This document shows, piece after piece, positions 37,742 to 64,000 of a stretch of 64,000 nt of DNA. Positions within the stretch are counted from its first letter, which is position 1. The number at the start of each line of letters is the position of its first letter. Location of the stretch: the NCBI RefSeq assembly GCF_964204645.1, contig NC_134026.1, positions 13,700,050 to 13,764,049 on the forward strand, read 5' to 3'. The notes beneath the pieces were generated by a model, which had not been told where the DNA came from, made no database searches, and saw nothing but the letters and a program-made list of their open reading frames with translations. The position numbers and the translations under genes are program-made. This DNA is from Tubulanus polymorphus (taxonomy: Eukaryota > Animalia > Nemertea).

Positions 37742-37773
37742 TTATTATAGAATTTTTTATTAAAATTAAAATT

Positions 37774-39018: not shown

Positions 39019-39038
39019 TTATTTAAGAGAAAAATTAA

Positions 39039-40756: not shown

Positions 40757-40771
40757 TTATATAATAAAAAA

Positions 40772-41446
40772 TTAAAATTTAAAATGTAATATTCCTACTA
40801 TTACAATTCCTATACAAGTTATAGCTAATTTAGCATTTTCATGTGATTTATTATCATTATTCGTTTTAATTATTTCAGGTTGAATATTTATATATATATC
40901 AGTTTTTATATTTTCTGATGTATGGTAATCTTTTAATTTAGAATCATTATTTAATTTAATATTCTTAGTTTTAGTTCCTGTAGAGTGTATATGCTTTTTT
41001 AATTTTTTCACCTTCCATTCATTTTGGAGCAGTAATAATCTTTTTATTTATTTCATTTAATCCAAATGAATTATTTATTGTTGCAGTTTTAATCAATTTA
41101 TTATAACCAATTATATTTCCCATTTTTAAAACTAAATCATAAGAAATAATTAATAAATTAGGGCCTATACAATAATTTAATCTTAAATGAGATTTATCTA
41201 AATAATTTTGATATCTTACAATGTTTTCTGGAATCGATCTATTTTTATCATTATGAATAACTTTAAATTGTTTCTGCACGTCAAATGAAGTATTATCATT
41301 TCCAATTATTGGGGATCTTGTTTCAACTTGCGCATCTAAAATACAAATTAACTAAGTTCTAATTGATTGATTTATTCTCTGTATTCCAGCTTTAGTAAAA
41401 CCTTCACTATTTTCTAAAATCAAATTAATCCATTATTATTTTGTTG
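40772..41446 (-). pseudogene. 3' half of the 431-aa protein paralog, cut by the BEL insertion
   Basis: Matches 56144-56820. Confidence 0.85.
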
Positions 41447-41721
41447 TGTAGCGACTGTTGACTACAAGGACGAACGACGAACGACGAAAACCAGAGACAA
41501 CCAGAGACAACAAGAGACGACCAGAGACAACAAGGCAGTCCTTACGGTTACAAGGTTTAGTGCGGTCTAACATTTTATTTAGTTTAAGATTACAGGAAAA
41601 CTCGGTGGGAAAATGCATGAATCTGATAGGTCGAGAGACGTCAGTTCAGTACTTCATGGTTCATGATTATGGCAAGTACACTTCGTTGAGTTTGTATTGC
41701 AGGTAAATGCTCGTCACGACA
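41447..41721 (-). repeat. BEL 3' LTR (275 bp, TG...CA)
   Basis: tgtagcgac...gtcacgaca; first ~170 bp repeated at 45138-45291. Confidence 0.85.
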
Positions 41722-44700: not shown

Positions 44701-45118
44701 AATCGTTTAGAGAAACTGATGACTTTGATTCTCGCGAACTGCAATCAAAAACTATTCGCATAGGCGTGGTTGATGATTGTCTGAAAACTGGGTGGCGTGG
44801 TATATAGTGCTCATGGCTATCGACAATAGAAGGATCAGTTACGATTTCAATAAAATCTTGTGCTAATTGATCTTGAATGATTTGATTATAACTGTCTAAG
44901 TACTTATCAAGTCTTTTTCTATCTCGAAAATTTATGTCTTAGAGTGAAAACGGTAGACATACCTTGAGCTGCGTGTTTTTCTTTCAGATGGTCGTCACAT
45001 TTCTTTTTCCATTTCGTGAATTGACCTCGTTGCACCTTCCGTAGCTCCTCTAAGTTTCAAAATCTGTCATGTCGTGAACTTCTGGTTACTTCGTTCTTCA
45101 AATTTTCTTCAAATGGGT

Positions 45119-45135
45119 CCGGCTCGAGGGACCAA
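45119..45135 (-). promoter_or_regulatory. Primer-binding site, tRNA-Tyr type
   Basis: Minus strand TGGTCCCTCGAGCCGG right after the 5' LTR; one mismatch to the complement of the eukaryotic tRNA-Tyr 3' end (..CCGGCUCGAAGGACCA). Confidence 0.75.
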
Positions 45136-45137
45136 AT

Positions 45138-45291
45138 TGTAGCGACTGTTGACAACAAGGACGAACGACGAACGACGAAAACCAGAGACGACCAGAGACA
45201 ACAAGGCAGTCCTTACAGTAACAAGGTTTAGTGCGGTCTAACATTTTATTTAGTTTAAGATTACAGGAAAACTCGGTGGGAAAATGCATGA
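45138..45291 (-). repeat. BEL 5' LTR, truncated by Polinton copy 2
   Basis: Identity to the 3' LTR stops after ..aaaatgcatga. Confidence 0.85.
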
Positions 45292-45295
45292 CTGT

Positions 45296-45703
45296 GAGTA
45301 ATAGGGGTAATAGGCTTTCAGATCAAAGGTCGAAAGGTCGAGCTCATTAAAAAACAAAATATTAAAAGTAATTAAAAAACTATAATATATTTTCATAACC
45401 GTGTGTATTTTATATTAAAACTAAATATTTATTCTAAGATATCAATAATATAAAAAGCATATTGTATTAAATCAATTGGTCGCTCCACTTCGCTACCGCT
45501 CCGCTCCGCGACCAATTGATTTAATTACAATACACAAATTCATATAATCAAATATATTCAAATGATAATAATTATTCTATTGTTCAACTGAAATACACAC
45601 GGTTATGAAAATATATTATAGTTTTTTAATTACTTTTAATATATGTTATTAATGAACTCGACCATTCAACCTTTAACCCGAAAGCCTATTACCCCTATTA
45701 CTC
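45296..45703. repeat. 408-bp imperfect terminal palindrome (hairpin)
   Basis: gagtaataggggtaataggctttc.. pairs with ..gaaagcctattacccctattactc; ~110-bp outer stem, ~50-60-nt bubble, ~23-bp inner stem, 24-nt loop. Confidence 0.92.
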
Positions 45704-45784
45704 TTAAAATATTCATATATATATGAATAACATTTAAATCATTGAACTTCTAAAATCAATTTTAATAAAAAATATAGTATTAAA

Positions 45785-45958
45785 ATGGAAGCAAATAAAT
45801 ACTACTGCCCAACATGTAATATCGATATAGATAAATCCCAAAAAGCAAGACACAATAAAACTATAACACATTTGTTTTTAGTCCAGTTGGTTAAAGCAAA
45901 AACATTTATCGAATTAAGGAACTCAACACATAGTGAAAAATACGTTGAATCGTTATAA
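45785..45958 (+). CDS. 57-aa single zinc-finger protein
   Basis: MEANKYYCPTCNIDIDKSQKARHNKTITH; below the ORF-track cutoff; A-tract and TAAAATG start. Confidence 0.55.
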   Translation: MEANKYYCPTCNIDIDKSQKARHNKTITHLFLVQLVKAKTFIELRNSTHSEKYVESL

Positions 45959-46939
45959 ACACCCGATAATACTCAGCTATATAGTTGGTTGTATTAACTC
46001 TAGTAAACATATGTTACCAGCTTATATTTCAATTGTAAAGAGTTAATTAATTTCATTAATCTAAATGCTTTTATTATTGTTTTTTTTCAACTTCAACACG
46101 TTGTGTATACAGCGAACGTAGCGAATCACAAATCTCATAATTTACAAGTCTCAACACGCTTGTTCTAGATGTTTATACTAGAACATGATTCTATTTGAGC
46201 CTATATACATTCAATGTACAGAGCCATAGAATAAATCTATAAATTCACAGCTGTTACAGTTGTTACTATAACGACGAGACATTATTACACGTCATAATCA
46301 GAAACGTGTAGAATATTCTAGAACCGGAACTAGATGGCGTGGCATAATCAACGACGTGTCATTCTAGAAATCACCCCGGAAATGGATATACGCTGTAATA
46401 TTGTGCTCAGGATATTCTATCTTTCGAAACGAAATAAGGAGTTTATAGTTTACAATTATAAATCTAAATGTAAGTACTGTTTGTTGTAGTTATTAAGGCT
46501 ATTAAATACGAAACCTTTAAATATATTTAAGTGTATTTAGTATATCTTTTAGATAGTTAGAGTTACCGCTAATATCTTTTAGATAGTTAGAGTTGCCGCT
46601 AATATCTATTAGATTAATAAAACGCCATACGCATCAAGAAGTGATAGAGAAACTCAAGATACTCTTTCTGACTGAGGAATCAACAGCAATGGATATCAAA
46701 CCAATAGAAATTAGCACAAGAAACACAAGAATCACCAAAAGATCGTCGAAGAAACTATATAAGAATTTCAAAAACATTAAGACTCCAATGATTAAGTTTA
46801 ACATTTGTTGATGTAGTTAAATATTTACCAGCAATTGAAAAAATGTTTGTAATTATAAATTGTATTTATAGAAATCAAATGATGTATTGGAAGAAACGGC
46901 CGAACAACTTGTATAATGTATTGTGTAAATCTGATTGAT

Positions 46940-47412
46940 GAATTTTTATGTTCGGTCGTTTCTATTCAGAATGAATATATAATTATGATTAGCGCATGCG
47001 CATTAAGCAAAAGCGCTCCTATAAGAGCGGTTTTGCCTAATGCGAACACGTTTAGATATTTTATGTCGGTCGTTTCTATTTACATAATTATATATTCATT
47101 ATGTAAATATAATTATGATTAACGCATGCGCATTGATCAAAAACGCTCCTATAAGAGCGGTTTTGCCTAGTGTACATACGTTTGAATTTTCTATGTTCAG
47201 TTGTTTCTATTTCACAGAATGAATATATAATTATGATTAACGCATGCGCATTGATCAAAAACGCTCCTATAAGAGCGGTTTGCTTAGTGCGAACACGTTT
47301 TGATATTTTATGTCGGTCGTTTCTATTTTACAGAATTTACAGAATGAATATATGATTATGATTAGCGCATGCGCATTAAGCAAAAGCGCTCCTATAAGAG
47401 CGGTTTTGCCCA
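46940..47412. repeat. Four ~120-130-bp tandem repeats with embedded palindromes
   Basis: cgcatgcgcatt at ~46993, 47123, 47241, 47366, each followed by aaa(a/g)cgctc-ctataa-gagcggttt. Confidence 0.9.
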
Positions 47413-47549
47413 GTGGTATTATTTAGATATCAAGGAATCGAAACAACTTATCAAAAGCAGCGAGGAATGAAAAAGGATGACGTTGGTCGAAGAAATGGAA
47501 GAGGATTCTAAAATTATTAACCAATTTAGTAAAAAAATACATATAATAA

Positions 47550-48224
47550 ATGGAACCAGAACAACCACAAACTATCAATATTACAAATAACACTGGCGTT
47601 ATAAACATATATTACAAGAAGTGTTCTAAATGTGAATTAAATAAATCATTAACAGAATTTAGTAAGCGTAAGATTAGCAAAGATGGTTTTCAATATTGTT
47701 GTAAAACTTGTACTAAACTATATACCAAACAATACCGAGAAGATAATATAAAACATTATAATTATTATATGACAAAATATATGAGAGAAAGATATCAAAC
47801 AGATCTTAATTTTAGATTGAAACAATGCTTAAGGTCTAGATTAACACAATTATTCAACAAAGAAACACATTCAGAAACATTAACTAATTTGTTGGGTTGT
47901 TCAGATGAATTTCTCAAATCATGGATTATATTTCAATTCGATGATAAAATGAATATAGATAATTATGGGGATTATTACCACATTGATCACGTGTTACCAA
48001 TATCTAAATTTAACATGAATGATGAATACAATAAAAAACTTATTTGGGGTTGGAAAAATTTAAGACCTTTAGAAAAGAAAGAAAATCAAACCAAATCTAA
48101 TAAACTAGATTTACAATTATATTTGGAACAGTTGAATAAAGCAAGGAAATTTATTGATTGGTGGAATAGTAACCCACAGAATGAACAATATGTTGAGGAA
48201 TTTGATATCAAGGATCCGAAATGA
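47550..48224 (+). CDS. HNH-like endonuclease with N-terminal Cys4 zinc ribbon
   Basis: CSKC..CKTC; YHIDHVLPISKF..WKNLRPLEKKEN..KSNK beta-beta-alpha-type motif, of a kind I recognise from large DNA viruses. Confidence 0.7.
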   Translation: MEPEQPQTINITNNTGVINIYYKKCSKCELNKSLTEFSKRKISKDGFQYCCKTCTKLYTKQYREDNIKHYNYYMTKYMRERYQTDLNFRLKQCLRSRLTQLFNKETHSETLTNLLGCSDEFLKSWIIFQFDDKMNIDNYGDYYHIDHVLPISKFNMNDEYNKKLIWGWKNLRPLEKKENQTKSNKLDLQLYLEQLNKARKFIDWWNSNPQNEQYVEEFDIKDPK

Positions 48225-48526
48225 CTTATCTGGACAGTTATAGTTACTGCTCCTAATAGATAAACAAAAGTAGTGAGATATCAAATAGAATTCAAATAAA
48301 ATATATTAAAAAAACAATCACTTCAACTGCTAGTGAATTCTGTTATATTTTTAATATTTTCTTTTCAAAAAGAGAATACTTTATATTTTGAATAGATTCA
48401 AATAGAAATTCTTTAAATTCAAATAGCTAGTATCAGTAGTCAATACTAGAATTCTTTAACTTTAATTATCTAGTATCATTTGAAGAATACTTATAATATT
48501 TTTTTTGCTTTTTTTCTCTAATATAA

Positions 48527-49132
48527 ATGTCAAAGAAATCTAATAAGAATAGTATTGATATTGAAAAGACATTAGATGATTTGGGTATAAGTGATAATAA
48601 TGATAATGTGGCAACTAAATGTGATAATAAAATTGATAGTAATATTGATTACGAGTACTATTTATATTGTAAACATCATCTAGAATTATTAATTGCTGGC
48701 GGGAAATCTAAGGACTTCTTGGGAAAAATAATAACTTTTCAAGAACTAGACTCTATGAAACCAGATAAAGTAATAAAATATTTTAAGATTTATGAAGAGT
48801 CAAGATTAGCTAGAATAAATAATTCTATTTCGGATGGTATTGTCAAATGTTATTCTAAGTTATGTAACCAGTTAATACCAATTGATGATGAAAATAAATT
48901 ATATAATGATTTGAAAAATGACTATTTAGTTATGACTGAATTACAAAAATGGGTTGGTTATGCTTCATTCCAATTAGGATCGGTTATGACATTGATTTCT
49001 ACTGGAGTTATAACATTTTCGAACATCAAACCTATGGAATATAAATCAGGTAAGAACGAAACAGATGTACTACAACAAAACGCCGAAACAGAAAATGAAT
49101 CAGAACAAAAATTAACTAAAATAAATGAGTGA
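48527..49132 (+). CDS. Polinton hypothetical protein (201 aa)
   Basis: Intact ORF with T-tract and TAAATG start; mildly hydrophobic segment near the C-terminus. Confidence 0.75.
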   Translation: MSKKSNKNSIDIEKTLDDLGISDNNDNVATKCDNKIDSNIDYEYYLYCKHHLELLIAGGKSKDFLGKIITFQELDSMKPDKVIKYFKIYEESRLARINNSISDGIVKCYSKLCNQLIPIDDENKLYNDLKNDYLVMTELQKWVGYASFQLGSVMTLISTGVITFSNIKPMEYKSGKNETDVLQQNAETENESEQKLTKINE

Positions 49133-49490
49133 TGGAGTTAAGAAAAAGGCTAGATCCGAGAAACAAATTAAATGGGCAAGAGAATTAGGTAAAAGATCTT
49201 CAGAATTAAAAAAAGCTAAGAAAAAGAAATTAACTGATATAAATGAATCACCTGATATTGATTCAAATAATAATCCATCTAATTCTTCTAATGTTGGAAG
49301 TAATTATGAATTATATATTACAATTGGATTAGTAACAGTTATTATATTATCCGGTGTAATATATAAATCAAAATTCAAATCTGACGATAAAGATGATCGG
49401 AAACTTAGTTATCCATGTACAGACAATAAACCTATCATACCAGAAAATAAATCAAATGAAAATAAATCTAAAATATTATTAATGGATTAA
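49125..49490 (+). CDS. Basic single-pass membrane protein (121 aa)
   Basis: K/R-rich N-terminus, TM segment LYITIGLVTVIILSGVIY; overlaps the upstream stop. Confidence 0.75.
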   Translation: MSDGVKKKARSEKQIKWARELGKRSSELKKAKKKKLTDINESPDIDSNNNPSNSSNVGSNYELYITIGLVTVIILSGVIYKSKFKSDDKDDRKLSYPCTDNKPIIPENKSNENKSKILLMD

Positions 49491-49493
49491 AAT

Positions 49494-50581
49494 ATGATGA
49501 AAAAAGAACAATATTTAAGAGAGTTATATTATAACCCAGAAAGTGAAGTATCATATTCTAACGTTTCAGAATTATGGAATAAAATTAAATCTGATAATAG
49601 CAATATAAAATATAGTGAATTAAAATCATGGTTACAAAATCAACCCACATATCAAATTCATAAAAAGATGGATAAAAAATATTTAACAAGAAAAGTAATG
49701 GTTTCATATATTGACCAACAATGGCAAGCTGATTTAATTGACATGAAGAACTTAGAAGAATATAACAAAGGATATTTTTGGATACTAAATGTTATAGATA
49801 TATTCAGTAGATACGCATGGAGTATCCCGATTAAAAATAAAACTGGAATAGAAGTAACAAATGCTTTTAAATCTATATTTAAAGAAGCTATTCCAGATAA
49901 GATACAATTTGATGAAGGTAAGGAATTTTATAACAAACATTTTAAAAAACTATTATCTGATAACGATGTAGAATATTTTTCAACACATTCAGATAGAAAA
50001 GCATCTGTTATAGAAAGATTTAATAAAACATTGAAAACTAGAATGTGGAAATATTTCACCGCTAATGAAACATATAAATATATCGATGTGTTAGATGATT
50101 TAATGAAAGGTTATAATAATTCTAAACATAGTTCTATAAATATGAAACCTATACAAGCTAGAAAAGAAGAAAATTCAGAAATAGTTTGGAATAATTTATA
50201 TGGCACATTTGTTACATATGATTTTGGAGAACCTAAATTTATATAGGACAACATGTTAGAATTTCTAAATATCGAAAAACATTTTATAAAGGTTATACCC
50301 CTAATTTTACAGAAGAAATATTTAAAATTAAAAAGATAATATTAACTAAACCTTTTGTTTATAAATTGTTTGATTTAAAAGATGAAGAAATATTAGGTTA
50401 TTTTTATGAACAAGAATTATCATTAGTACCAAATCCAGATGAAATAGAATACAAAATAGAAAAAGTATTGAAAACAAAAACTCTTAAAGGAAAAAAGTAT
50501 TCTTTGGTGAAATATAAAGGATACGATGATAAATTTAATGAATGGATTTTATCTAGTAAAATTAAAAGAATAAATGAATAA
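49494..50581 (+). pseudogene. Retroviral-like (rve) integrase with C-terminal chromodomain; one frameshift at ~50241
   Basis: WQADLIDM, VIDIFSRYAW, QFDEGKEF, KASVIERFNKTLK; other frame continues IGQHVRISK..KGYTPNFTEE and IEKVLK..LVKYKGY..FNEW. Confidence 0.92.
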
Positions 50582-51140
50582 AGATTTATTTATATTTGAA
50601 CCACATAATATGTTAGTTACTGGAGTTACAAATTGTGGTAAAACACATTTCATATTAGACTTGTTAGAAACTATTTATAAGAATCATTTTGATAATATAA
50701 TATTATTCTGTCCTACATATGAAATGAATAAAACATATAATAGAGATATAGTTAAGATAAAAAAGTTTATTATATTAAACCCTAAAACAGTAAAAGAAAA
50801 TTTAGATAATTGTATAAAAATTACATTAGATATTTATAAAGGATCTAATACATTATTTATTATCGATGATTGCGCAAATTTACATGATTCTAAAATTAGA
50901 GAAAGCGAGTTATGTTATTTAGCTTTCTCTGGTAGACATTTTGGGATAACAACATGGGTTTTAAATCAGAAATATAATTCAATTGTGAAAGATTTTAGAG
51001 AGAATATAAGATTTCTAGTTTTATTCTACAACAAAGATAGAAAATCTATGCAACAATCATTGGAAGAAAATCAAATTATACCTACTGAATTACATGATGA
51101 ATATATGAATAAATTAAAGAATAATAAAGGTTCAAAATAA
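50574..51140 (+). CDS. A32/FtsK-like packaging ATPase
   Basis: Walker A GVTNCGKT, Walker B LFIIDD, SGRHFGI..LNQ. The stop at 51138 may be premature (frame stays open for about 14 more codons). Confidence 0.9.
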   Translation: MNKDLFIFEPHNMLVTGVTNCGKTHFILDLLETIYKNHFDNIILFCPTYEMNKTYNRDIVKIKKFIILNPKTVKENLDNCIKITLDIYKGSNTLFIIDDCANLHDSKIRESELCYLAFSGRHFGITTWVLNQKYNSIVKDFRENIRFLVLFYNKDRKSMQQSLEENQIIPTELHDEYMNKLKNNKGSK

Positions 51141-51238
51141 TTAATGAGATTACAATTTCCATATGAATATAAGTTTATAAAATAACTATTTGTATACCTA
51201 TGTATTAGATATCAGATATGTATTATATACCTCCCCTA

Positions 51239-51803
51239 ATGTCTTTATTATCTTTAGTACTTTAGTACTTTTAGTACATAAAGAATAAATCTTTATTTTA
51301 TTAGTAGTGAATAAAATAAAATAGAACTACTAAACTACTAAAGATAATAAAGACATAACAAAGACATATAGATTTATTATTACTGAATCAAATATATATA
51401 ATAAATATGTGAGATAAATAAATCTATGATATTTATTACATCTATATGTGTTTGTTATGTCTTTATTATCTTTAGTAGGTTTAGTACTTTTAGTACATAA
51501 AGAATAAATCTTTATTTAATTAGTACTTAGAAAAATAAATATATAAATAATTTTTATAAATGATAAATCTATGATATATATAATAAATATATGTGATAAA
51601 TAGATTTAATTATTGAAACTGTAATATATAAAATCCATCAGATGAATAAATATAATTATTGAAACAGTGTTATATATATATTTATATCTTTATTATCTTT
51701 AGTAGTTTAGTAGTTTTAAAAATAATTTTATTCACTACTAATAAAATAAAGATTTATTCTTTATGTACTAAAAGTACTAAACTACTAAAGACAATAAAGA
51801 CAC
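51239..51803. repeat. Nested direct and inverted repeats between the convergent gene blocks
   Basis: atgtctttattatctttagta..tagtacataaagaataaatctttattt at 51239 and 51458, inverted at ~51745-51802; further inverted part-copy at ~51327-51373. Confidence 0.88.
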
Positions 51804-51829
51804 AAAGGGTATTATATTCATATTTTAAA

Positions 51830-53143
51830 TTACTTTTCTGATTCTAATTCTGAAAACAATTTGCTCCATGCATCTCTTAATTCTTGTGATCTTCTTTCAC
51901 CTAATAGTTTAAAATGATAACCATTACCATTCAAACCCTTAACAAAGAATTCATAAGTTAAATAAATATATTGGTTTAATTTGTCTTCACTTATATTTTT
52001 ATATTCATTTTTTGCATCATTTCTTATTTTATTTATAACATCCTGTGAAAAATCTTCATAACGATAGTATTGAATTATTTCATCAAAGTTATCACTTATA
52101 TTATCATTAGAAGCAACTTTTTTCAATTCTGTTAAAAAATCTATATTTTTAAATTTTATGAAATAATGTATACCCCAATAATTATTTAGATCAATTTTTA
52201 TATATAACCGACGAGTTTTTAGATCTGATAATACTTGTTTTGGATTATTTCTTACATAATCGATAAAAATTGATCTATATAATTTCCTATGATCATTATT
52301 TTTGATATCAAAAAATGCATTTGGTACTCTATAAAGGTTATTTAAATCAGCAGCTTTTATTGTGTGTTCAAAAGAATTATCATGTTTAATTCTATCTTTA
52401 GGTAATACAACAACATTACACTTTTCACATATATTTCTTTCTATATTATCCAAATGTATCTGTGTTAATTTATGCTTTGAAAAATTACTACGACTTATAT
52501 ATTTATCACATTCTTCACAATATTTATCTTCTTTAACATTATCATTATCAATTTCACTATCATTATCCAATTCATTTAAAATCTTATTCTTATTTTTCTT
52601 ATGCTTGAGTGAATTAAGATGAGTTGCCCAATTCTTATAACTTTTATACTGTTTACATACGTCACAATATTTTTCATTTGTCTTTTTTGATTCAATATCA
52701 TATGTAGAGGGTATATTATAAGATATAGATCCTGTTACATCTTCTATTTTATATTCAATATCATTCTTATCTTCTATTTTATATTCAATATCATTCTTAT
52801 CTTCTATTTTATATTCAATATCATTCTTATCTTCTATTTTAGTTTCAATATTATCTTCTATTTTATATTCAATATCATTCTTATCTTCTATTTTAGGTTC
52901 AATATTATCTTCTATTTTTGTTTCAATATTATCTTCTATTTTTGTTTCAATATCTTTCTTATCTTCTATTTTTGTTTCAATATTATTATTACGTTCAATT
53001 AAATATTCTTTGTATTGATTTAATTCATTTAATAAAAATGTTCCAATATATTCATTTATTCTTTTATAAGGTATTACATAATACAAATCATCATTGATTT
53101 CTTTATCAGCTTTGATTCTTTCATATACTTTACCTCCTTCCAT
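51830..53143 (-). CDS. Zinc-finger protein with IEDKNDIEYK/IEDNIETK peptide repeats (437 aa)
   Basis: Three CxxC-x11/12-H-x5-H fingers; coding minisatellite ~52741-52985. Confidence 0.8.
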   Translation of the reverse strand: MEGGKVYERIKADKEINDDLYYVIPYKRINEYIGTFLLNELNQYKEYLIERNNNIETKIEDKKDIETKIEDNIETKIEDNIEPKIEDKNDIEYKIEDNIETKIEDKNDIEYKIEDKNDIEYKIEDKNDIEYKIEDVTGSISYNIPSTYDIESKKTNEKYCDVCKQYKSYKNWATHLNSLKHKKNKNKILNELDNDSEIDNDNVKEDKYCEECDKYISRSNFSKHKLTQIHLDNIERNICEKCNVVVLPKDRIKHDNSFEHTIKAADLNNLYRVPNAFFDIKNNDHRKLYRSIFIDYVRNNPKQVLSDLKTRRLYIKIDLNNYWGIHYFIKFKNIDFLTELKKVASNDNISDNFDEIIQYYRYEDFSQDVINKIRNDAKNEYKNISEDKLNQYIYLTYEFFVKGLNGNGYHFKLLGERRSQELRDAWSKLFSELESEK

Positions 53144-53175
53144 TTAATATAAGATTTTTTATTAAAGTTAAAATT

Positions 53176-54423
53176 TTAATACATAACACTATCTAATTGT
53201 GAATTAACAATATTTAATTGCGCGTCAGATATAATATAAATGTGCATTTTAAAATTTTTGATTCCCTTTTTCTTTTTCATAAATAATTGTATTCCATCTT
53301 TTGTATTTTGTAATTTTTTTCCAGAACCATGTAATGAATTATCTTCAATTGTTCTAAAATCTAACCATAATGCATATTTATTACCGGTATAATAATCAAT
53401 TTGATTAATGTTACAATTTTCAAATGATTTTATTTTTTCATTCATAAAATGTTTTTTAATTTCTACCCATTGATCTATCATTCTCATTCCTTGACAAAAT
53501 ATTTTATTCGCTATACCTTCGATAGTTATTTCTACTTTTGTTATTTCAGGATTATAATAATTGTCAACATTTATTGCGCCATTAGTATACGTTCCAATAG
53601 TAAAAAATATTAATATACCTTTAATAGATCTTCTAGGAAAGTTAATATTCTCATTAATTATTTCATCATTTGCATTAATAGTTACAGTTTTAAATTTATC
53701 AATATAATCATATAATAATGAAAACCCTTGATTATATTTAGTTTGAATTATACTTGAAATATTTTCATCAGTTACTGTATCATATTCTAAACATATATTC
53801 GATAATTTATAACTCATATCTTTATTAACACTAGATATTACAATTTCATTTACAGGAGCAAATGTTATCTCAAATATAACATCTTCTTGAATTGCGTATT
53901 TATATAAAGGTGCATTATTATTTATCAATTCAAAGTCTAATGGAATTTTATATTTGCTTCCATATATACTTTTTATCAATTTATCTACATCATTTGTTAA
54001 TATTGCGCTATTAGCTTCTGATCTTAATTTATTTTGGTTTTCTGATTGGATTCCTTGAAATATCATATTATTTCTATTTTCTTTAGTTAACCATAAATCT
54101 TTATAGTGCATAAATAAATTATAATCATCTAATGAAAAAACTGTTTCCGGACCAATCTTTATTGTTAACTTTTTAATCAAATATCTTCCAACATTATCAA
54201 CGACATAATTATTATTATTACCAGATACTTTTATATCAGCCGATAAATAAATACTATTTGGAACATAAAAAGTATTTTGTGTTAATCGAGGGATTCTAAC
54301 GTATAAAGTTTCATCGGGATTAATATTTGAAGGGTTATGAGTAATTATATGATGTGATCTTTCTGCTTTAATAGCATTAGATATTCTATGATTCTTCGAA
54401 GGACTTATATAACTCCCACTCAT
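53176..54423 (-). CDS. Probable major capsid protein (double jelly-roll)
   Basis: 415 aa, beta-rich; ITHNPSNINPDETLYVRIPRL, LWLDFRT, YIISDAQLNI as in invertebrate Polinton MCPs; the best-conserved gene between the two copies. Confidence 0.8.
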   Translation of the reverse strand: MSGSYISPSKNHRISNAIKAERSHHIITHNPSNINPDETLYVRIPRLTQNTFYVPNSIYLSADIKVSGNNNNYVVDNVGRYLIKKLTIKIGPETVFSLDDYNLFMHYKDLWLTKENRNNMIFQGIQSENQNKLRSEANSAILTNDVDKLIKSIYGSKYKIPLDFELINNNAPLYKYAIQEDVIFEITFAPVNEIVISSVNKDMSYKLSNICLEYDTVTDENISSIIQTKYNQGFSLLYDYIDKFKTVTINANDEIINENINFPRRSIKGILIFFTIGTYTNGAINVDNYYNPEITKVEITIEGIANKIFCQGMRMIDQWVEIKKHFMNEKIKSFENCNINQIDYYTGNKYALWLDFRTIEDNSLHGSGKKLQNTKDGIQLFMKKKKGIKNFKMHIYIISDAQLNIVNSQLDSVMY

Positions 54424-54444
54424 TTATTTAACAAATAAAATTAA

Positions 54445-56127
54445 TTATTTATTTTTTATCATGTTTACTAACCCAAAAATAATAGCACTTACAACTGTAA
54501 TTAAAAATAAAATAATATGTTCAGCAGCAAAGTTAAGAATATTACCTGCAGATTTCAATATAAAACCAACAATTGAAGCAATAACTCCTGGCAATGCTGC
54601 AGCAGATTTTTTAGATAGTTCCCATAAATATTTTGCTAATTTCTTTAAACCATCTTTAACTTTATCTTGTATAGAATTATTACCTGGAGGTTTATCTGGT
54701 TTATTGGGAGTAGGAGTAGATTTCAAAGCATTTGATATTGCTAAACCAATTGTTGTAAATAACATAGTTACAGCTGTTAGAATTGAGAGAATTGTTATTC
54801 CTTCTAACTTAAATAATAACTTTATTCTGTCTTTTAATGATATTTCAGAATTTGGTTTAATCAACAAATCTTTAAAAATAACTTTTAATCTATTAATATT
54901 ATAATCATATGATTTTAATAATAATTTAATTTCTTCTTTTTGTAATTCTATGTTATATTCTAAATCATCTTTTTCTTTTTCTAAATATACATTTCTTTTT
55001 TTAAATTCAATTTCTTCAATAACTTTATTATCTCTATCTAATTTTAATTGTTCTATTTCTTTATTTTTATCAGTTCTATCTTTTTCTAAAAATCTAATTT
55101 TAATATCTCTTTTACTTTTTTCATGCGCAATTTTATCAGCTGATTCTTGCATACCTTTAATTTCTCTACGTGCTTGTTCAGGAAATGCTTCTAATTCATC
55201 ATCAGTTAAATCAAATAATCCTTTTTCTAGTAAAGATTGTATTCGATTTATTCCAGCACTATTCATCAGTTCTTCTGAATCTCTTAATCTATCAATTTGT
55301 TTTTCTAATTGTAATTTACTTGAATCATTATCAATTTGTTGAGTGTCTCTTCTAGATGTTTCGGGTGTTGAAGATCTTAATCTATCTAATCGATTTCTAT
55401 TCTCTTCCATTTCTGGATCAAAATCAGTAGGATTTGGATTTGGATTTTTAAATGGATTTTTAAATGGTGAATATTTGTTTATATCAATTTTAGGAATTGG
55501 TTCTTTTTCATTTATTCTATCGATTGCATTCCATATAATTCTGAGAAATTCTGTGCCACCTTTTGAATGTTCAATTGTAGATAATGCTCGCATTTCAGGT
55601 TCATAAATATTTTCTTGACCCATTTTAGATAATTGAATTGATACAATTTTGTTATTTAAATCAAGATTATAATACCATGCATCATTTTTAAATTCTAAAT
55701 TATTCATGAAATATGGGTCATCTTTAAAAATTTGTTCTACAACACCTTTTGGATCAATTTCATGTATTACAGCTATTGGTAGTAATTCGTTAACAATTGT
55801 ATCTGTTACTCTAGATTTCATTTTATATAATTCCAAACGTTCATTAGGATATTTTTCTTCTTGTTTTACTAATAGTTCCATGAATTCTTTTCTTTCTGTT
55901 CTAGTTGAAATTTTACCACTTTCAAGAGCTTCTAAATATTTATTTAATTTTTCACGTACTTCGGTATTAATTCCATCATCATCATCATAATCATCTTCAC
56001 CTAAATTAGTATTATATGCTGATTCATCATCATTATCGATATTAGCACCTGCATCATTATAATCATCATCAATATATCCTTCATTATCATTTCCCATGTC
56101 ATCCAATGGAATATCTTCTACATCCAT
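54445..56127 (-). CDS. Acidic/coiled-coil protein with C-terminal hydrophobic helices (560 aa)
   Basis: D/E-rich N-terminus, coiled coil, EGITILSILTAVTMLFTTIGLAI, ALPGVIASIVGFIL and C-terminal TM. Confidence 0.8.
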   Translation of the reverse strand: MDVEDIPLDDMGNDNEGYIDDDYNDAGANIDNDDESAYNTNLGEDDYDDDDGINTEVREKLNKYLEALESGKISTRTERKEFMELLVKQEEKYPNERLELYKMKSRVTDTIVNELLPIAVIHEIDPKGVVEQIFKDDPYFMNNLEFKNDAWYYNLDLNNKIVSIQLSKMGQENIYEPEMRALSTIEHSKGGTEFLRIIWNAIDRINEKEPIPKIDINKYSPFKNPFKNPNPNPTDFDPEMEENRNRLDRLRSSTPETSRRDTQQIDNDSSKLQLEKQIDRLRDSEELMNSAGINRIQSLLEKGLFDLTDDELEAFPEQARREIKGMQESADKIAHEKSKRDIKIRFLEKDRTDKNKEIEQLKLDRDNKVIEEIEFKKRNVYLEKEKDDLEYNIELQKEEIKLLLKSYDYNINRLKVIFKDLLIKPNSEISLKDRIKLLFKLEGITILSILTAVTMLFTTIGLAISNALKSTPTPNKPDKPPGNNSIQDKVKDGLKKLAKYLWELSKKSAAALPGVIASIVGFILKSAGNILNFAAEHIILFLITVVSAIIFGLVNMIKNK

Positions 56128-56143
56128 TTACATAATAAAAAAA

Positions 56144-57439
56144 TTAAAATTTAAAATATAATATTCCTCCGATTACAATTCCTATACAAGTTATAGCTAT
56201 TTTAGTATTTTCATGGGATTTATTATCATCATTTAGTTTAATTATATCATGTTGAATTTTATCAGTTTTTATATCTTCTGATGTATTGTAATCTTTTATT
56301 TTAGAATCATTATCCAATTTAATATTCTTAGTTTTAGTTTCTGTTGATTGAATGTGTTTTTTATTTTTTTCACCTTCAATTAATTTTGGAGCAGTAATAA
56401 TCTTTTTATTTATATCATTTAATCCAAATGAATTATTTATTGTTGCAGTTTTAATTAGATTATTATAACCAATTATGTTTCCCATCTTTAATACTAAATC
56501 ATTAGAAATAATTAATAGATTAGGTCCTATACAATAATTTAATCTAATATGTGATTTATCTAAATAATTTTGATATCTTATAATGTTTTCTGGAATCGAT
56601 CTATTTTTATCATCATGTATGGAATCTTCAAATAAAACTTTAAACTGTTTCTGCGCATCGAATGAAGTGTTATCATTTCCAATTATTGGGGATCTTGTTT
56701 CAACTTGAGCGCCTAAAATACATATCAAATAAATTCTAATAGATTGATTTATTCTTTGTATACCTGATTTTGTAAAACCTTCACCATTTTCTAAAATGAA
56801 ATTAACCCAACCATTATTATTATCAATTTTATAATTATGATAAGCTCCAATTCTATGCATATAATCAATTCTTTTTATTTCATACTGTTCACCAACACCT
56901 TGCAATTTACCATGCGCTCTGAAATCGGAATTAATATTTATATTAAATTCATTACATATTTTATAAAACTTGGATATATTAATATTATCATCCAATTCTT
57001 TAAAATATTTAGACCCGGGTAAAGGACATTCTAATTCATTTAATATTATTCTGATTTGAAAATATGTGTGAAATCTAAATATTGTGTGAATTAATTTTAA
57101 ATCAGAATACTTCAAATTTTTATCTAAGTTATTTAAATGATCATTCCAACTAATTCCACATCCTGTTGTTGCACAATGAACAGCAAAATTTAATTGATTC
57201 TGCCAATATTTCATATTAGATTTTACTTTATATATATGATATTCATCTCGAGTAAAAGTAACTTCATATGTATTAAATATATTTTCCATTTTAGAAATAA
57301 AAAACTGTGATTCAGTAACATAAATTTCTAAATTAGTTAATGAATTTAAAACTACATTTTTATATGTAATATTTTTCTTAAAATCTGGAATATTATATTT
57401 AATTGATTTATTATATTGGAAAGCTTTTGGAAACCCCAT
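56144..57439 (-). CDS. Conserved Polinton protein (431 aa) with C-terminal membrane anchor
   Basis: WQNQLNFAVHCATTGCGIS motif; terminal IAITCIGIVIGGILYF. Confidence 0.8.
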   Translation of the reverse strand: MGFPKAFQYNKSIKYNIPDFKKNITYKNVVLNSLTNLEIYVTESQFFISKMENIFNTYEVTFTRDEYHIYKVKSNMKYWQNQLNFAVHCATTGCGISWNDHLNNLDKNLKYSDLKLIHTIFRFHTYFQIRIILNELECPLPGSKYFKELDDNINISKFYKICNEFNININSDFRAHGKLQGVGEQYEIKRIDYMHRIGAYHNYKIDNNNGWVNFILENGEGFTKSGIQRINQSIRIYLICILGAQVETRSPIIGNDNTSFDAQKQFKVLFEDSIHDDKNRSIPENIIRYQNYLDKSHIRLNYCIGPNLLIISNDLVLKMGNIIGYNNLIKTATINNSFGLNDINKKIITAPKLIEGEKNKKHIQSTETKTKNIKLDNDSKIKDYNTSEDIKTDKIQHDIIKLNDDNKSHENTKIAITCIGIVIGGILYFKF

Positions 57440-57455
57440 TTATATAATTAAAAAA

Positions 57456-57890
57456 TTAATAATTTATTAATTCTTTTAATAATTTATCTTGTTCTTCAAC
57501 TGTTATATGACCATTTAAACTTATTGTATAATCTAGTGTGTTCTTTAATTTATTAATTTCTTTTATATTAGTTTTAATTTTTTCTTTATTACTTTTTATA
57601 TTTAATTTTGAACTTATACCAGTTAAAACACTTGAACTTAATCCTAACACACCAATTGATATAGCTAAAGGTGTTAATGGACTAAATATTGCTAAAAATG
57701 TTATTACAGAACTAATTGTAACCGAACCACTTATAATCAAATAATATATAATTTTACTTTTTAAATATTTTTCCTTTTTTATCTTTAAGTCACTTTCAAA
57801 TTCTAATATTTGTTTTTCTAAATATGTTTTTAATTTAGTTTTATTTATATCATGAGGAATAATATCAATACTATCAACTTTATCTTCCAT
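57456..57890 (-). CDS. Two-TM membrane protein (144 aa)
   Basis: Hydrophobic hairpin flanked by K/E coiled coils. Confidence 0.78.
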   Translation of the reverse strand: MEDKVDSIDIIPHDINKTKLKTYLEKQILEFESDLKIKKEKYLKSKIIYYLIISGSVTISSVITFLAIFSPLTPLAISIGVLGLSSSVLTGISSKLNIKSNKEKIKTNIKEINKLKNTLDYTISLNGHITVEEQDKLLKELINY

Positions 57891-57909
57891 TTATTTAGAA
57901 TAAAAATTA

Positions 57910-58332
57910 CTAATTAGTAAATTTATAAGCAACAAATATAACAATAACAGTTCCACCTAAAATCCATATTATTTCATATTTCTGTTGTTCTTTACTTGGG
58001 GTATAATAATCTGATAATTTAGGTTTGTATAGATGTAATTTTTCTTTATTTGTTACTGCGTTATATAAACTCATTGCATCATCAACTGATTGAAAATCTC
58101 TATGTGAAATCTTCTGATCATATAATTCTTTATTGATGTAATCCATATAGTTTTGTCTCTTTTCTCTATATTCTTCTGCAGCTTTATTATATTTCTCTAA
58201 CGCTAAGTTATGTCTTCTTTGTTCTCCTAATGAACTATTTTTATCAATATGTTTAAATAAATAACCACCACCAGTAAATGCCAAGGCGTTAACAATTGCC
58301 GATCCTATAATAGTTATAATTGCAGAAGCCAT
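57910..58332 (-). CDS. Conserved small protein with N- and C-terminal hydrophobic helices (140 aa)
   Basis: IGSAIVNALAFTGGGYLF..EQRRHNLALEK; C-terminal TM. Confidence 0.78.
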   Translation of the reverse strand: MASAIITIIGSAIVNALAFTGGGYLFKHIDKNSSLGEQRRHNLALEKYNKAAEEYREKRQNYMDYINKELYDQKISHRDFQSVDDAMSLYNAVTNKEKLHLYKPKLSDYYTPSKEQQKYEIIWILGGTVIVIFVAYKFTN

Positions 58333-58355
58333 TTATTTAGCAAAAAATTATGCAT

Positions 58356-58577
58356 TTATATGGGAGGAATATATTTTTGTTTTTCCAAATAATCAATAGT
58401 TAAATTAGATAAAGTAACTGCTAATGTTAACTTTAAAATATCATTTATATCAAATCTATCAACATTAACACTTCCCATTTTGAATACTTTTTTTAATACC
58501 ATTGAATAACCAACAGTTCCAACTGATAGTAATGCACCATTATATAATCCAGTTATTATCCACTTATTATCACTCAT
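58356..58577 (-). CDS. Small hydrophobic protein (73 aa)
   Basis: Intact, tightly packed ORF with TAAATG start. Confidence 0.7.
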   Translation of the reverse strand: MSDNKWIITGLYNGALLSVGTVGYSMVLKKVFKMGSVNVDRFDINDILKLTLAVTLSNLTIDYLEKQKYIPPI

Positions 58578-58919
58578 TTATTTATCAAAAAAATTACTAT
58601 CATCAAAATATTTAGTTAACTTAGTGATGATTAATTCAACATTTATTTCATTACTAGTTTTATGATTATCATATATTTTGGTTAATATGTTTTTAATATC
58701 ATCAATAATTCCATCTTCATTTAATTCATAATATTCTAAAGGTGATTTAATTAAATCAATTACTTTTTCTATATTATAATTTTCTTTATTAATCATTGAT
58801 GCATTGTTAAATGATTTACTTTTTATATCAGTAATTACATCATTTAGTTTAATTCTCATTTCTTTACCATGTTTAAAATCAAACCCAAAACATATACTCG
58901 GTCCAACAGTTATATTCAT
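58578..58919 (-). CDS. Hypothetical protein (113 aa)
   Basis: Intact ORF, TAAATG start, stop abuts the next ATG. Confidence 0.7.
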   Translation of the reverse strand: MNITVGPSICFGFDFKHGKEMRIKLNDVITDIKSKSFNNASMINKENYNIEKVIDLIKSPLEYYELNEDGIIDDIKNILTKIYDNHKTSNEINVELIITKLTKYFDDSNFFDK

Positions 58920-58935
58920 TTATATATCAAAAAAA

Positions 58936-59694
58936 TTACTCTTTACATCTTATAACTAATTCATAAATTACAGGGAAATTATTTAAATCAATTAAGTATC
59001 CATTATGATTTCTAATTTCTAATCTAAAATTATTAAAACGAGGAATGCATGGTTTGAAATCACATTCTGTTAAATTATAATTTATTTGCGTTCCAAATTC
59101 TTTAACATTCTTCAATGGTAAAATGTTTAGTAAACCAGAATTACAAGTTATATCTTTAGTTGCTTCGAATGTTTTTGTAGGATCGATTAAATTGCAATAA
59201 ATATAAAAATGTGTAAAAGGCATTATATTTGGTGTAGCATCAGCATTGCGTATCCTTATATCTGGGGTTATTCCTAAAATTTTAGCTAAAGGTTTTTTAA
59301 CTAGAAATTGATGTTGATCTTCATTACCTAATTTTATTCTTATTTTATCAGAACTATCACTTTTAATCAGTCTTAATCCAAATCCAGCAGATGCACCCAT
59401 TTTCAACCGAGCTCTTCTATTAATTTCTTGAGCTAATGTTTCTAAATTATATAATCCTGGTTTAAGATAAAGATGAAACCATTTACTTTTATTTCTATCA
59501 TGAATTAAAAAGACTCTATGTTCAATAGACTTATCCGATACATTGTAAATAGAATTACATAAACTTATATTAACTAATTTTAAATCTACACAATTCTTAA
59601 ATTCTCTGTCTAATTGTACTAATAAATTATGTGATTTATAATTTGTAAGTTTTCTAGAATCAACAAATATTCTGTATTCTTTTAATTCCACCAT
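58936..59694 (-). CDS. Probable minor capsid protein (penton, single jelly-roll)
   Basis: NSIYNV, LKPGLYN, FYIYCNLI, LLNILP, LEIRNHNGYLIDLNNFPVIYEL pattern typical of Polinton pentons. Confidence 0.75.
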   Translation of the reverse strand: MVELKEYRIFVDSRKLTNYKSHNLLVQLDREFKNCVDLKLVNISLCNSIYNVSDKSIEHRVFLIHDRNKSKWFHLYLKPGLYNLETLAQEINRRARLKMGASAGFGLRLIKSDSSDKIRIKLGNEDQHQFLVKKPLAKILGITPDIRIRNADATPNIMPFTHFYIYCNLIDPTKTFEATKDITCNSGLLNILPLKNVKEFGTQINYNLTECDFKPCIPRFNNFRLEIRNHNGYLIDLNNFPVIYELVIRCKE

Positions 59695-59711
59695 TTATTT
59701 TACATATTTTC

Positions 59712-60053
59712 TTATTCGAAATCTATTTCATGGTGCCCTTTTTCATTCTTACCTTTATATACGAAATAGAAATCTCCAGAACATAATTCTTCTAGATCTT
59801 CACTTGATAATCTATGAAATCTATCTGGTAAATAAGTTCTGAATTTATATTTATTTCCTTTTAATCCTTCATATTCTAAATGAATTACTAATTTATCTCC
59901 ATATTTATTAGTAATTGTTTCAATGTTAGTAATTAAATATTTCTTGTGAATTGTTAACTCAGTTAGTTTTTTAAATTTATAATCTACAGATTTGACGCTT
60001 GAAGTATCTTTAATTCTATCTAAGAATTCACTGTGTACTTGTTTACTCTCCAT
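59712..60053 (-). CDS. Small beta-rich protein, possible OB-fold ssDNA-binding protein (113 aa)
   Basis: FKKLTEL..KYLIT..NKYGDKLVIHL..TYLPDRF; lies directly downstream of pPolB. Fold is inferred. Confidence 0.65.
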   Translation of the reverse strand: MESKQVHSEFLDRIKDTSSVKSVDYKFKKLTELTIHKKYLITNIETITNKYGDKLVIHLEYEGLKGNKYKFRTYLPDRFHRLSSEDLEELCSGDFYFVYKGKNEKGHHEIDFE

Positions 60054-60081
60054 TTATTATACAAATTTTTATTGAAATTGA

Positions 60082-63000
60082 TTAACACGCTAGAATCCTT
60101 TTCATAATCTCATTTTCTTTTGTTTCTTCTCTTTTGAATTTTATATATTCATCTAAATTGCAACCATAGGCGACTGTGTGGATTCCATCATCTAAAATAT
60201 ATCTTTTATCATCAAATGGGTTTAGACTTATCTTTTCAATTTCTTCAATATACATTTCATGATCTTCAGATCTCAAACATTTCATCTTATGTTTTCTAAC
60301 TTCTTCATTAAATATACAATTGATGTAATCTTTGAAATGAATATTCTTTTCTACTACACTTTTGGTTATTCCTTTTAACTTTTTAGCTTCATGTTCTTTA
60401 GTTTTATATGAATACATTTTAGATCTAATACCTATGAACTCTATCATTTCTTCACCACCTAATTCATCTTTGAATTTACCGGGAACTTTTTTATTATCAT
60501 TGCTAAACAATTCATGATTTTTAGGATAGTTACTGAAATCAAAATGATGATTTAATATTTTTAAATCATCTCTTATATTATCACTTTTTATCTTTAATAT
60601 GTAAGAATCTGTATCAAAGTATAGAATTTCTATATGTTTTTCCCCAAAATGGGGTTGCAATACATTATAATAGAATTCATACATCAATAGCTTTGAAATT
60701 TCTAAAACCGATGCTCCAACATAAATAGGTTTATTGAACTTCATAGAAGTTCTTTTTAATTTAACTGCAGCTAAATTTTCATCAAATATTCTATTACCTA
60801 TGAATTTCGGATACGATTGTAAATGCCTTATCCTTTTACCATTACTAACTAACTCAATATCATTTCTATTTCTAATATTTTCACATGTTTTTCCATAAAA
60901 CGCATTATTCATCAATTTAAAAAATCCTTCTCAAAATCTGTTTTTGCTTCAGTTCTCTGTGTAGTATTAAAATCTATATATTTTTCAAACCACTTAGATT
61001 GACTAAATGAAATATATCTATGTACTTTTTTTAATATCATTCCTTGTCTCAAATAAAACTTCAACATTCTATAATGTACTACATAATTATATTTATCTTC
61101 TTGAGTTACCATTAACTTTTCAGTATGAATATGATTATCGGGTTTAATTCTTTTTTGATAATTTGATAATTCTTCATGTTTAACAGTTTTATGTTCGGGA
61201 CAATATGCTAGATTTCTAGATTTGAATTTAATATTTTCAGGGTATTCTAAATCTACAACGAAGAAGTAACCAGTATCTGAATCATCTGCAATATCTAGGA
61301 TTCTTTTCTTCCAATCAGTAAAACTTCAGTTATTTCAAACATCCCATAAGGTTGTGGTTCCATCATTGCCCAACCATAAAGATTATTTGCATCTATGTAT
61401 AATAATTTATATCCAGGATTATCATTTACATTGAAATATCTATCACCTAATACACCTGAAACACCTCCTCTTATAGATTTTTCAAATAATAGTAATTGAT
61501 CTATATTTGTTAACAAATCCATTTTTATATCTGTAAATTTTAAACCACAATCCCAAGTTAATCCTGGTGATGAATAACAATGACAAGGATCAATATTGAA
61601 ATATTTTAGGTTTACATCTCTAAACCTTTCAAATATATCGGTTAATAATAATACATCTGATTTTAAATATAAATCTACTAATTGCCCATGATTTTCTATT
61701 TTGAAATGATTCCAAATATTCAATGTTCTATTATAGACTTCATCTTTAACATATTCATTTTTTAATTCATCATAAAATTGTTCTTTTAATAATTCAGTTA
61801 TTTTAAAATCATTATGATTTTTATAGAAAGAATATGGAATTGCTCCTTTATATCTCATTAATTTAAAATCATCATTATTTGGGTAATATTCTTTTAATAT
61901 CTTTAATTCATCATCAACTAATGATTTTGATAAGTTATCTAATGAACTATTTAAAAATCTATATGAATCTATAAATCTTAAACAACCAAATTGGAATGAT
62001 ATATAATTCTCAGATGTTTTAGCTAACATTCTAAATTTATAAGTTGGTATTTTATCTTTTGATCTATTTGAATTTAATATTTCTATTTCATTATTGATTT
62101 CTTCTATTTTATAACATAGCTGTTTGATAAATAAATGTGCATCATATCCTGATAGATTATGAAATATAACTGGTACAAAGTTAATTTTCTTAGCTTGTAA
62201 GTTACAATTCTCATGTGCAGCGCCTCTAAACTTTCCATTCAAATGATCATGGTCTCTTACTTTTTTATCTTTATAATTAAATATCTTTTCACAATAATAA
62301 CATTTATCTGCAAACGCAAATACTTCTTTATCTTCTTCTGTCATTATAATTTCTATATTTTTATTTAACTTTTCATTAAATCTTATTTCATATTCAATTA
62401 ATAAGTCACAAAAATGATTGATAACATTTTCATTTCTGTAATTATAATATTCACTTTTAATTAGTTCTGGATAATTAGATTTAATATATAACCCGAAAGC
62501 TGCAGCTGATTGATGAATCTTTTTAATAGTATTTGTTTTTGGTGGTTCTTCTGAATAATCACTTTCATTAGAATTTAATTTCTTTCTTTTATAATATATA
62601 TCTTTTCTATCTTTATCTGTTAATTCTTTATTTAATGATTCAAAATCTCCATATATTACAAATGGTACTTTATTTTTGTAATCATATTTTTTGAATTCTA
62701 ATATTTTATCCTTTTCATTTGGTAAAACTAATTTACAATAATCATGATTATCACATAATTGTTTATGATTTAATAATGTACTTTCATTACTAAATTTATG
62801 TAAACATTTTCTACATAGATATATTTTATGGTGATCATTTTCTGTTCTAAAAAATAAATCTATTTGTTTAATCCACATATAATGATTCTCATAATATAGT
62901 ATATCTATAACATCATTTGAATCATAATCTTTTGATAGATATAAAGGTTCTAATGTATAATGTTTTATGTTGTTACCTTTTGTATTTGGTAATTTGATTA

Positions 63001-64000
63001 AATCAAATACATTTATCTTTATATTATTATCTCTTTCTATTTTTGGGATGTTTTTAATTCTAACAGGATACTTATCTATCTTATAATTATTTTCAAATTG
63101 TTTATAATGAGTTAATCTACAAATATTATAAGTTGCAGGATGTAAACAACTTATTATAGTCCATAGTAAACATTTATCATCAAAATTTTGTACATTTATT
63201 ACAGCATTAGTTTTAAATGGTAGTTTAATATAACTCGATGCTTCAATATCTGGTTCTTTATAATATGATACATTATTTTCATCAATTGGTTTTGATTTAG
63301 TTAACTTATTATATTTTGTGTTATAAACATGTAAAGTCATAAATATTATCTCATCAAATATTAAACCAGATCCTTCAAAATATTTCTCTTCTATTTTAGT
63401 TTTTATTTCATTATAACATTTATTTAATTTATCATCTATATGTTGTTTAGATATAATATGTTGTGAATGAGAATTTATATTATATATTGGTTTATCTTCA
63501 GATTTTATAAACTTTACTTTAACTGATATACTAAGTTTAGGATATTCAACATCAGTAATTATTTTTATAATATTTTTCATATTTTCTAAATGTTTTTTAT
63601 TTTCTTCTAATGTTTTTCCTTTATGAAATTTAAACTCGATAGCTGCTGGACCAATATCACTTTTAAATGCTTCGGTTATCTCTATATCTTTTTTATTATC
63701 TAATGAATTAATATAATTTCTTACATCTTCCATGTATGGTCTTTTATTGTTTAATTTATTTTTTATTCTTTTAATTGTCTTCTGTTTCTTATCGTTATCA
63801 TTATCAAAATAATCTTCACCTAAAATATCATTATTCTTATTTCTAATATGACTTATAGATTTTAAATGTTCTTTATAATATCTTTTATCACTGAATGATT
63901 GATTACATGTATCACATTTATATGTTTCTTTTTCATTCTTTAATTCTTCTAATTTAGTTTCTAATATATCATCTTTATATTCTAGTTTCAATTTATTCTC
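60082..64000 (-). pseudogene. Protein-primed family B DNA polymerase, two frameshifts (~61322, ~60920), 5' end outside the window
   Basis: Exo I YGDFES, Exo II FHNLSGYD, Exo III YLKSDV; Pol A YIDANNLYGWAM, B KLMNNAFYGKT, C YFDTDS; endonuclease-VII-like insert CYYC..RDHDHLNGKFRGAAHENCN. Confidence 0.95.

Follow-up and report, generated by a model that had tools for sequence, protein, structure and literature searches.

Which RNA polymerase transcribes the genes of an animal Polinton? The question is raised by a 64,000-nucleotide stretch of the genome of the nemertean Tubulanus polymorphus (NC_134026.1, positions 13,700,050 to 13,764,049 of the forward strand; hereafter, the window), in which the segment from 45297 to beyond 64000 is an integrated, decayed Polinton. 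Nearly every gene of this element begins with the hexamer TAAATG, and our analysis supports reading the motif as a cis element that is conserved across the lineage and shares its initiator and T-tract geometry with poxvirus late promoters. From the sequence, we propose, giving the idea about an even chance, that the TAAATG sites would serve as promoters for the RNA polymerase supplied by a co-infecting, cytoplasmic helper virus of poxvirus type.

The TAAATG start signal

TAAATG stands at 14 of the 16 gene starts, all at the coordinates given in the original prediction; elsewhere in the element, 47 of 744 ATGs have it (Fisher P 1.1e-14). The motif is also scarce in other backgrounds: 2 of 93 ATGs matched for AT content, 47 of 520 non-gene frames opening at the first ATG after a stop, and 3 of 82 open reading frame (ORF) starts in the host flank. 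The original observation at the gene starts is confirmed. The two exceptions are a frame at 45785, which reads TAAAATG, and the integrase gene at 49494, which reads TAAAATATG; the integrase gene starts with TAAATG in two related loci, L001 and L002.

Could such a motif be a signal for translation or RNA processing, such as stop–start coupling, an in-frame stop shielding the start, an upstream poly(A) signal or a trans-splice site, or simply the product of AT bias? The start at 58577 abuts the upstream stop, two starts overlap the upstream gene, and AATAAA overlaps many starts. However, the upstream stop supplies the TAA only at 58577, so that coupling, which had been named as a possible refutation, explains one start in fourteen; ten starts lie 16–302 nt beyond the stop of the gene before them, and 47550 is the first in its unit. 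In addition, divergent starts 19 and 24 nt apart bear TAAATG on both strands, with no same-strand gene upstream. A YAG lies within 20 nt in only 4 of 45 starts, which argues against trans-splicing, and the AT-matched background cited above argues against composition. Nor would any of these explain the fixed T and the two upstream cores described below. We consider this whole group of explanations largely refuted and very improbable.

The signal is shared by relatives of the element. Seven metagenome loci, L001–L007, have 51–77% capsid identity, and TAAATG is found there at 34 of the 42 ORFs of at least 100 aa; control viral contigs have it at 35 of 465 ORFs overall and at 15 of 142 where GC is at most 30%. 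In a curated set from five loci the count is 45 of 49 starts, and the other four still have TAAA just 5′ of the ATG. Left out of the curated set, though included in the uncurated count, are L003, which nearly duplicates L002, L005, which nearly duplicates L006, the broken L007 (0 of 2 ORFs), antisense frames, and starts that are truncated or internal. In L001, the gene order differs from that of the window and the motif is retained; a deoxynucleoside kinase gene (10340–10981), absent from the window copy, has a TAAATG start with a T-rich core. Among 23 orthologue pairs, the TAA is kept in all 23 and position −12 in 21, while spacer positions are kept in 11–13. Since L001–L007 are related to each other and to the window, these counts show conservation, not independent origins. 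The start test on related Polintons nevertheless bears out the original prediction, and it has a boundary: three distant Polinton loci, L008–L010 (34–38% capsid identity), have TAAATG at 0 of 12 ORFs. No relatives appeared in viral contig scans with the capsid, capsid alignment, ATPase, polymerase piece and 431-aa alignment as queries, nor in a phage collection.

Upstream of the hexamer lies an AT-only core, which ends 8 bases before TAAATG. In the 45 TAAATG starts of the five loci, 4 of the 315 bases from −18 to −12 are G or C, compared with 81 of 329 in the background. A T occupies position −12 in 42 of the 45, and in 13 of the 14 starts in the window, in both classes of start; position −13 is T in 29 of 45 and position −3 in all 45. 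The classes differ at −16 to −13, which are T-rich or A-rich in a single register: the T count is 3–4 in eight window starts and 0–1 in six (column-shuffle P 5e-5; P 0.65 for background TAAATG sites). The T class comprises the capsid gene, a six-gene block and 48527; the A class comprises 47550, 49125, 50574, 53143, 59694, 60053 and the probable polymerase start. The original prediction had recognized the two classes, and the promoter strings it quoted (57439, 58919 and 53143) are exact; its class members stand, with 49125 and 50574 to be added to the A class. It missed the strongest upstream feature, the T at −12 common to both classes.

We considered and rejected the T tracts as terminators of the upstream genes, as they hold register to the downstream start. 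At 58577, the tract lies within the upstream coding sequence, so the tracts follow the start rather than the stop. The word TTTTTNT is neither enriched nor clearly depleted in the coding strands (7 seen, 10 expected).

The polymerase that would read the signal

Vaccinia consensus spacings are taken here from later papers that cite the primary work, in the available portions of each. The late promoter is described as having TAAAT(G) over the start codon with a T-containing core 5–7 bp away (PMC5294985) and a conserved T ten bases upstream (PMC11980589); the late consensus is given as T-N9-TAAATG and the intermediate one as TAAAAA-N14-TAAA (PMC11423596, Table 1). Of the eight T-class starts in the window, seven fit the late consensus, and the late-type geometry originally claimed for T tract plus TAAATG is therefore upheld. 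The companion claim, that the A class corresponds to the intermediate promoter, fails: the spacing is 9–11 nt rather than 14 in all 12 starts with a TAAAAA core, the A core sits in the T-class register, and several orthologues switch class (e.g., 60053, 58919 and the L006 capsid gene). As far as sequence comparison goes, the initiator is identical to that of poxvirus late promoters, the late core is close, and the mapping of the two classes is loose. No early-promoter consensus was found in the element.

Given the fixed core, the initiator fused to the start codon, the T at −3 and the near absence of intergenic space, the simplest account is poxvirus-type initiation within TAAAT, in which the polymerase would add a poly(A) leader. 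No RNA polymerase was detected in the 17 ORFs of this copy, several of which lack an assigned function, and Pfam, NCBIfam, PHROG and PDB scans gave no transcription-related match, nor any to the TATA-binding protein (TBP). Since the window probably holds the whole internal region of the copy, judging from the reads discussed below, the original observation that no RNA polymerase is in view is not only correct but can be restated as none detected in this copy; the enzyme would thus come from a helper. We envisage that, once in the helper's factory, the Polinton DNA would be transcribed by means of the helper's post-replicative factors. Replication, packaging and integration would rely on the element's own products, namely its protein-primed polymerase, its capsid and its integrase, a cycle that would parallel that of mavirus with its giant virus. 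It is tempting to propose that the A-core genes (polymerase, putative single-stranded DNA-binding protein, ATPase and nuclease) may be transcribed at an earlier time or at a lower level than the T-core virion genes. There are precedents for parts of this scheme, as described in the available text of the sources: the pacmanvirus transpoviron shares promoters with its helper (PMC11788076); for Halocafeteria virophages, which have palindromes in their terminal repeats, an unseen helper was inferred from virophage promoters (10.64898/2026.07.28.741278); and Polinton-like viruses occur in entomopoxvirus occlusion bodies (PMC11296320). Apart from these precedents, a gene transfer from egovirus to Polinton is reported in trichomonads (10.1101/2024.03.23.586382).

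Several points weigh against a poxvirus-type helper. The link to it comes from promoters, no helper virus, transcript or 5′ end having been observed, and it does not account for the way in which DNA inserted in the nucleus would reach a polymerase in the cytoplasm. Profile and structure scans found no poxvirus-derived or poxvirus-specific gene in this copy, and relatives of the L001 kinase are uninformative on a poxvirus origin. The invariant T at −12 is one base nearer than in the vaccinia consensus (−13), in addition to the short A-class spacing. A 21-kb poxvirus-type record, identified by an NPH-II match, has TAAATG at 10 of 26 ORFs, one of the ten having been picked by the search pattern, and among these ten the T is at −12 in five and at −13 in five. 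Among the distant loci, L008 and L009 often have TAAAATG, and also short divergent gaps of 38–59 nt, so that the TAAA start possibly predates any association with a helper. Finally, TAAATG and T tracts in L045, a contig of a non-pox large DNA virus, and the TAAAN initiators of yeast linear plasmids, where the polymerase slips (PMC6211774, as far as its available text goes), mean that the helper need not be a poxvirus.

This last point leads to another reading, that the element is helper-read but by some other carrier of a cytoplasmic polymerase, either a large DNA virus outside the poxviruses or a linear element whose polymerase is pox-like, using this exact 8-nt register. The one-base offset and the A-class spacing would fit such a carrier, as would the yeast plasmids and L045, whose NCLDV-type capsid gene accompanies TAAATG at three starts. 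On the other hand, asfarvirus-type late signals are reported as TATA-like with AU leaders and differ from TAAATG (PMC7163114 and PMC11788076, available text), and TAAATG fused to the start codon is a documented hallmark of poxviruses (PMC5294985, PMC11980589 and PMC4542343, likewise). We regard this carrier as improbable. As separate observations, L045 (53% GC) has AT-rich gaps in the region 1026–4120 that bears the three starts, and L063, a poxvirus-type record, has a phospholipase A2-like gene at 1355–1795 (PF08398) with a TAAATG start; this gene class is known from Polintons and parvoviruses.

The helper may also be dispensed with altogether. In that case, host RNA polymerase II (Pol II) and TBP would read the signal in the nucleus as a compact Polinton promoter, perhaps once a small element-encoded factor has switched it on; its likeness to poxvirus promoters would stem from common descent, or from convergence on an AT-rich TBP site with an initiator. 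Integration and a copy number in the tens fit this view, as do the TAAAATG of distant relatives, the several conserved ORFs that have no assigned function, and tandem repeats in the left arm with words that we take to resemble Pol II sites. That vaccinia late and intermediate elements bind TBP is stated in the title of a reference. The register and the start context tell against a nuclear promoter: T is at −3 in 45 of 45 starts, whereas the likely starts of L008 and L009 have A there in 7 of 7. The eukaryotic start context prefers a purine at −3, and T runs counter to it. Likewise, 8 nt separate the core from the initiator, a distance far from the spacing of a TATA box. More weakly, AATAAA is not depleted in the coding strands (70 seen, 65 expected), and the lack of a TBP-like match in any scan points in the same direction. 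We hold nuclear transcription by Pol II to be unlikely, though a serious competitor.

Returning to the poxvirus-type helper, a wider proposal may be made, which we offer tentatively and consider doubtful: a whole clade of animal Polintons might consist of endogenous virophages of an undiscovered poxvirus-type lineage, whose late transcription would be recorded in these promoters as in fossils, and intact copies might form a heritable antiviral reserve in the germ line. For the present copy, the inducible antiviral role that had been suggested is unsupported, its polymerase, integrase and ATPase reading frames being interrupted.

The element, its copies and its genes

The genes of the element have about 20–26% GC, compared with 33–43% in the flank, which contains retrotransposon-like ORFs. 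The gene set is that of a Polinton: an rve integrase, an A32-type ATPase and a double jelly-roll capsid protein. The ends were located with raw DNA reads (run X6, same species label). At 45297, where the sequence starts AGTAAT, 1841 reads show unrelated flanks; at 45873, 952 reads exit with a single continuation, which matches by eye the last bases of the window, and depth across 45297–45873 is approximately double. We infer that this segment is the left terminal inverted repeat of the main Polinton copy (copy 2). Its left end and inner edge rest on the reads, and the right repeat and right end lie beyond the window. From these edges it follows that the whole internal region is probably contained in the window. 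The first 406 bp of the repeat (45297–45702) form an imperfect palindrome or hairpin (z −19) in which the terminal motif is repeated inverted; this may possibly be part of a replication origin. Depth is 469–1105 in 23 of 30 bins of 47430–64000 versus 14–21 in six of seven flank bins, and only 2392 of 69,233 reads are at least 99% alike. The depth suggests tens of Polinton copies in the genome.

An older, truncated copy on the minus strand (copy 1, 36722–41440) runs from the ATPase end to a fragment of the 431-aa gene, with 82.8% identity to copy 2 over 4118 columns. It retains three TAAATG starts (37741, 39018 and 40756), not the four originally counted, and at this identity they are not independent evidence of conservation. 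The insertions between 36722 and 45297 are nested: an LTR element (repeats 41447–41626 and 45138–45297) cuts copy 1, and copy 2 starts within the second of these repeats. Farther out in the host flank, a dispersed repeat family with a period of about 150 bp occupies many blocks from 6370 to 30620, and a high-copy element ends near 31940–31990. One 40-base piece from one run, RNA only by guess, matched 31600–46960 and is evidence neither way.

The left arm is non-coding and has a tandem array, 3.6 copies of a 130-bp unit (46966–47415). The repeats contain GCGCATGCGC and TATAAG, words that we take to resemble Pol II factor sites, and the array is a candidate nuclear switch. The 57-codon plus-strand frame 45785–45958, with its TAAAATG start and A-class core, is probably a terminal-repeat copy of the 5′ end of the polymerase gene rather than a separate gene.

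The plus-strand genes begin with an HNH/endonuclease VII-like gene (47550–48224; PHROG 1035, E 3e-18; A class). A conserved 201-aa gene of unassigned function (48527–49132; T class) follows 302 nt after the upstream stop, and within its ORF starts a 121-aa gene with a hydrophobic segment (49125–49490; A class). The rve integrase (49494–50582; PF00665, E 8.5e-10) has a chromodomain-type tail, a domain also found in relatives, and its frame is broken near 50246. Next is the A32-type packaging ATPase (50574–51140; PF04665, E 1.3e-11; A class), of 188 aa versus 204 aa in orthologues. Behind it lies an AT-rich nested inverted repeat of subfamily-specific sequence (51225–51817). AT-rich inverted repeats of unrelated sequence occupy the same place in L001 (9173–9340), L002 (3720–3837) and L004 (3163–3275), with the following gene either convergent or in tandem; none is present in copy 1 and none was detected in L006. 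An inserted MITE was considered and rejected, since the position behind the ATPase is fixed in four relatives. A terminator or an origin is possible.

The remaining genes are on the minus strand, and all of those with an assigned start begin with TAAATG. A 437-aa gene with repeats and zinc-finger-like motifs (51830–53143; A class) is hypervariable, and its matches are only at the level of those repeats and fingers. In this gene and its copy 1 counterpart (36837–37741), the promoter and first residues are kept, the C-terminal part differs per copy and locus, and depth drops to about 25; the slot behind the capsid gene looks like a fast-changing accessory slot. The double jelly-roll major capsid protein (53176–54423; T class, with a broken tract) gave a model of pLDDT 83 that Foldseek matches to PBCV-1 and iridovirus capsids (E 1e-16). 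It is followed by six conserved T-class genes of 560, 431, 144, 140, 73 and 113 aa (54445–58919), five of which have hydrophobic segments, with intergenic gaps of 0–23 nt; their products are likely virion-associated. For the 431-aa protein (56144–57439), the predicted fold (pLDDT 82) has no clear structural match (best Z 4.6), and weak matches of residues 233–348 to three adenovirus capsid chains (Z 3.0–3.9) are a lead only; from the model, it may be a cement protein. The gene at 58936–59694 (A class) probably encodes a minor capsid protein, a label that we assign from a presumed motif. A 113-aa gene (59712–60053; A class) is a possible single-stranded DNA-binding protein: its L001 orthologue scores 0.87 in the Atlas against a cluster in which 44% of the members have Phi29 SSB, again only a lead, and the Atlas matches for two orthologues are below 0.9 for named families. 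Last, 60082–64000, open at the window end, holds interrupted pieces of what we take, from motifs in the translation, to be a Family B DNA polymerase gene; it matched an endonuclease VII domain and no polymerase profile in Pfam, PHROG or PDB. None of the 17 ORFs matched an adenovirus-type maturation protease, although a divergent or polymerase-fused protease is possible.

Comparison with known systems

It is apparent that a well-conserved promoter system of a Polinton clade is real and apparently unpublished: we found no report of poxvirus-type promoters in Polintons, although an earlier mention might stand in supplements or subscription reviews. No animal Polinton has had its life cycle observed, and these elements may be either autonomous nuclear viruses or parasites that depend on a helper. 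With a poxvirus-type promoter at nearly every gene, helper dependence becomes testable, and a virus of that type is predicted in the host. The start signal also offers a way of sorting Polinton clades, from sequence alone, by the polymerase reading them.

The element shares with animal Mavericks/Polintons (“adintoviruses”, PMC8502044) the Family B polymerase motifs, rve integrase, A32 ATPase, double jelly-roll capsid, probable terminal repeats, membrane-type gene block and many genomic copies, and differs in that no separate maturation protease ORF was detected; the available text of that paper describes no poxvirus-type promoter and includes no promoter analysis. With the entomopoxvirus-associated Polinton-like viruses (PMC11296320), the likeness lies in the proposed parasitism of an invertebrate poxvirus. 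Those viruses were found physically with their helper, two of them without an integrase, and in the available text their promoters are not analysed, whereas here the element is a multicopy, rve-integrated Polinton tied to a putative helper through its promoters. Mavirus-type endogenous virophages and the pacmanvirus transpoviron resemble the element in being integrated or episomal; they carry the promoter motifs of their helpers and have no RNA polymerase, and none was detected here. Their hosts are protists, their helpers are of mimivirus or asfarvirus type, and their motifs are different; reactivation and host protection have been shown for some of them, while the present element is known from its sequence. 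Finally, vaccinia post-replicative promoters likewise have TAAAT over the start codon, a T tract 5–8 nt upstream and an A-rich alternative core. The Polinton signal differs from them in its invariant T at −12 instead of −13, in an A core placed at the T-core distance, and in its use at nearly every gene, including the replication genes.

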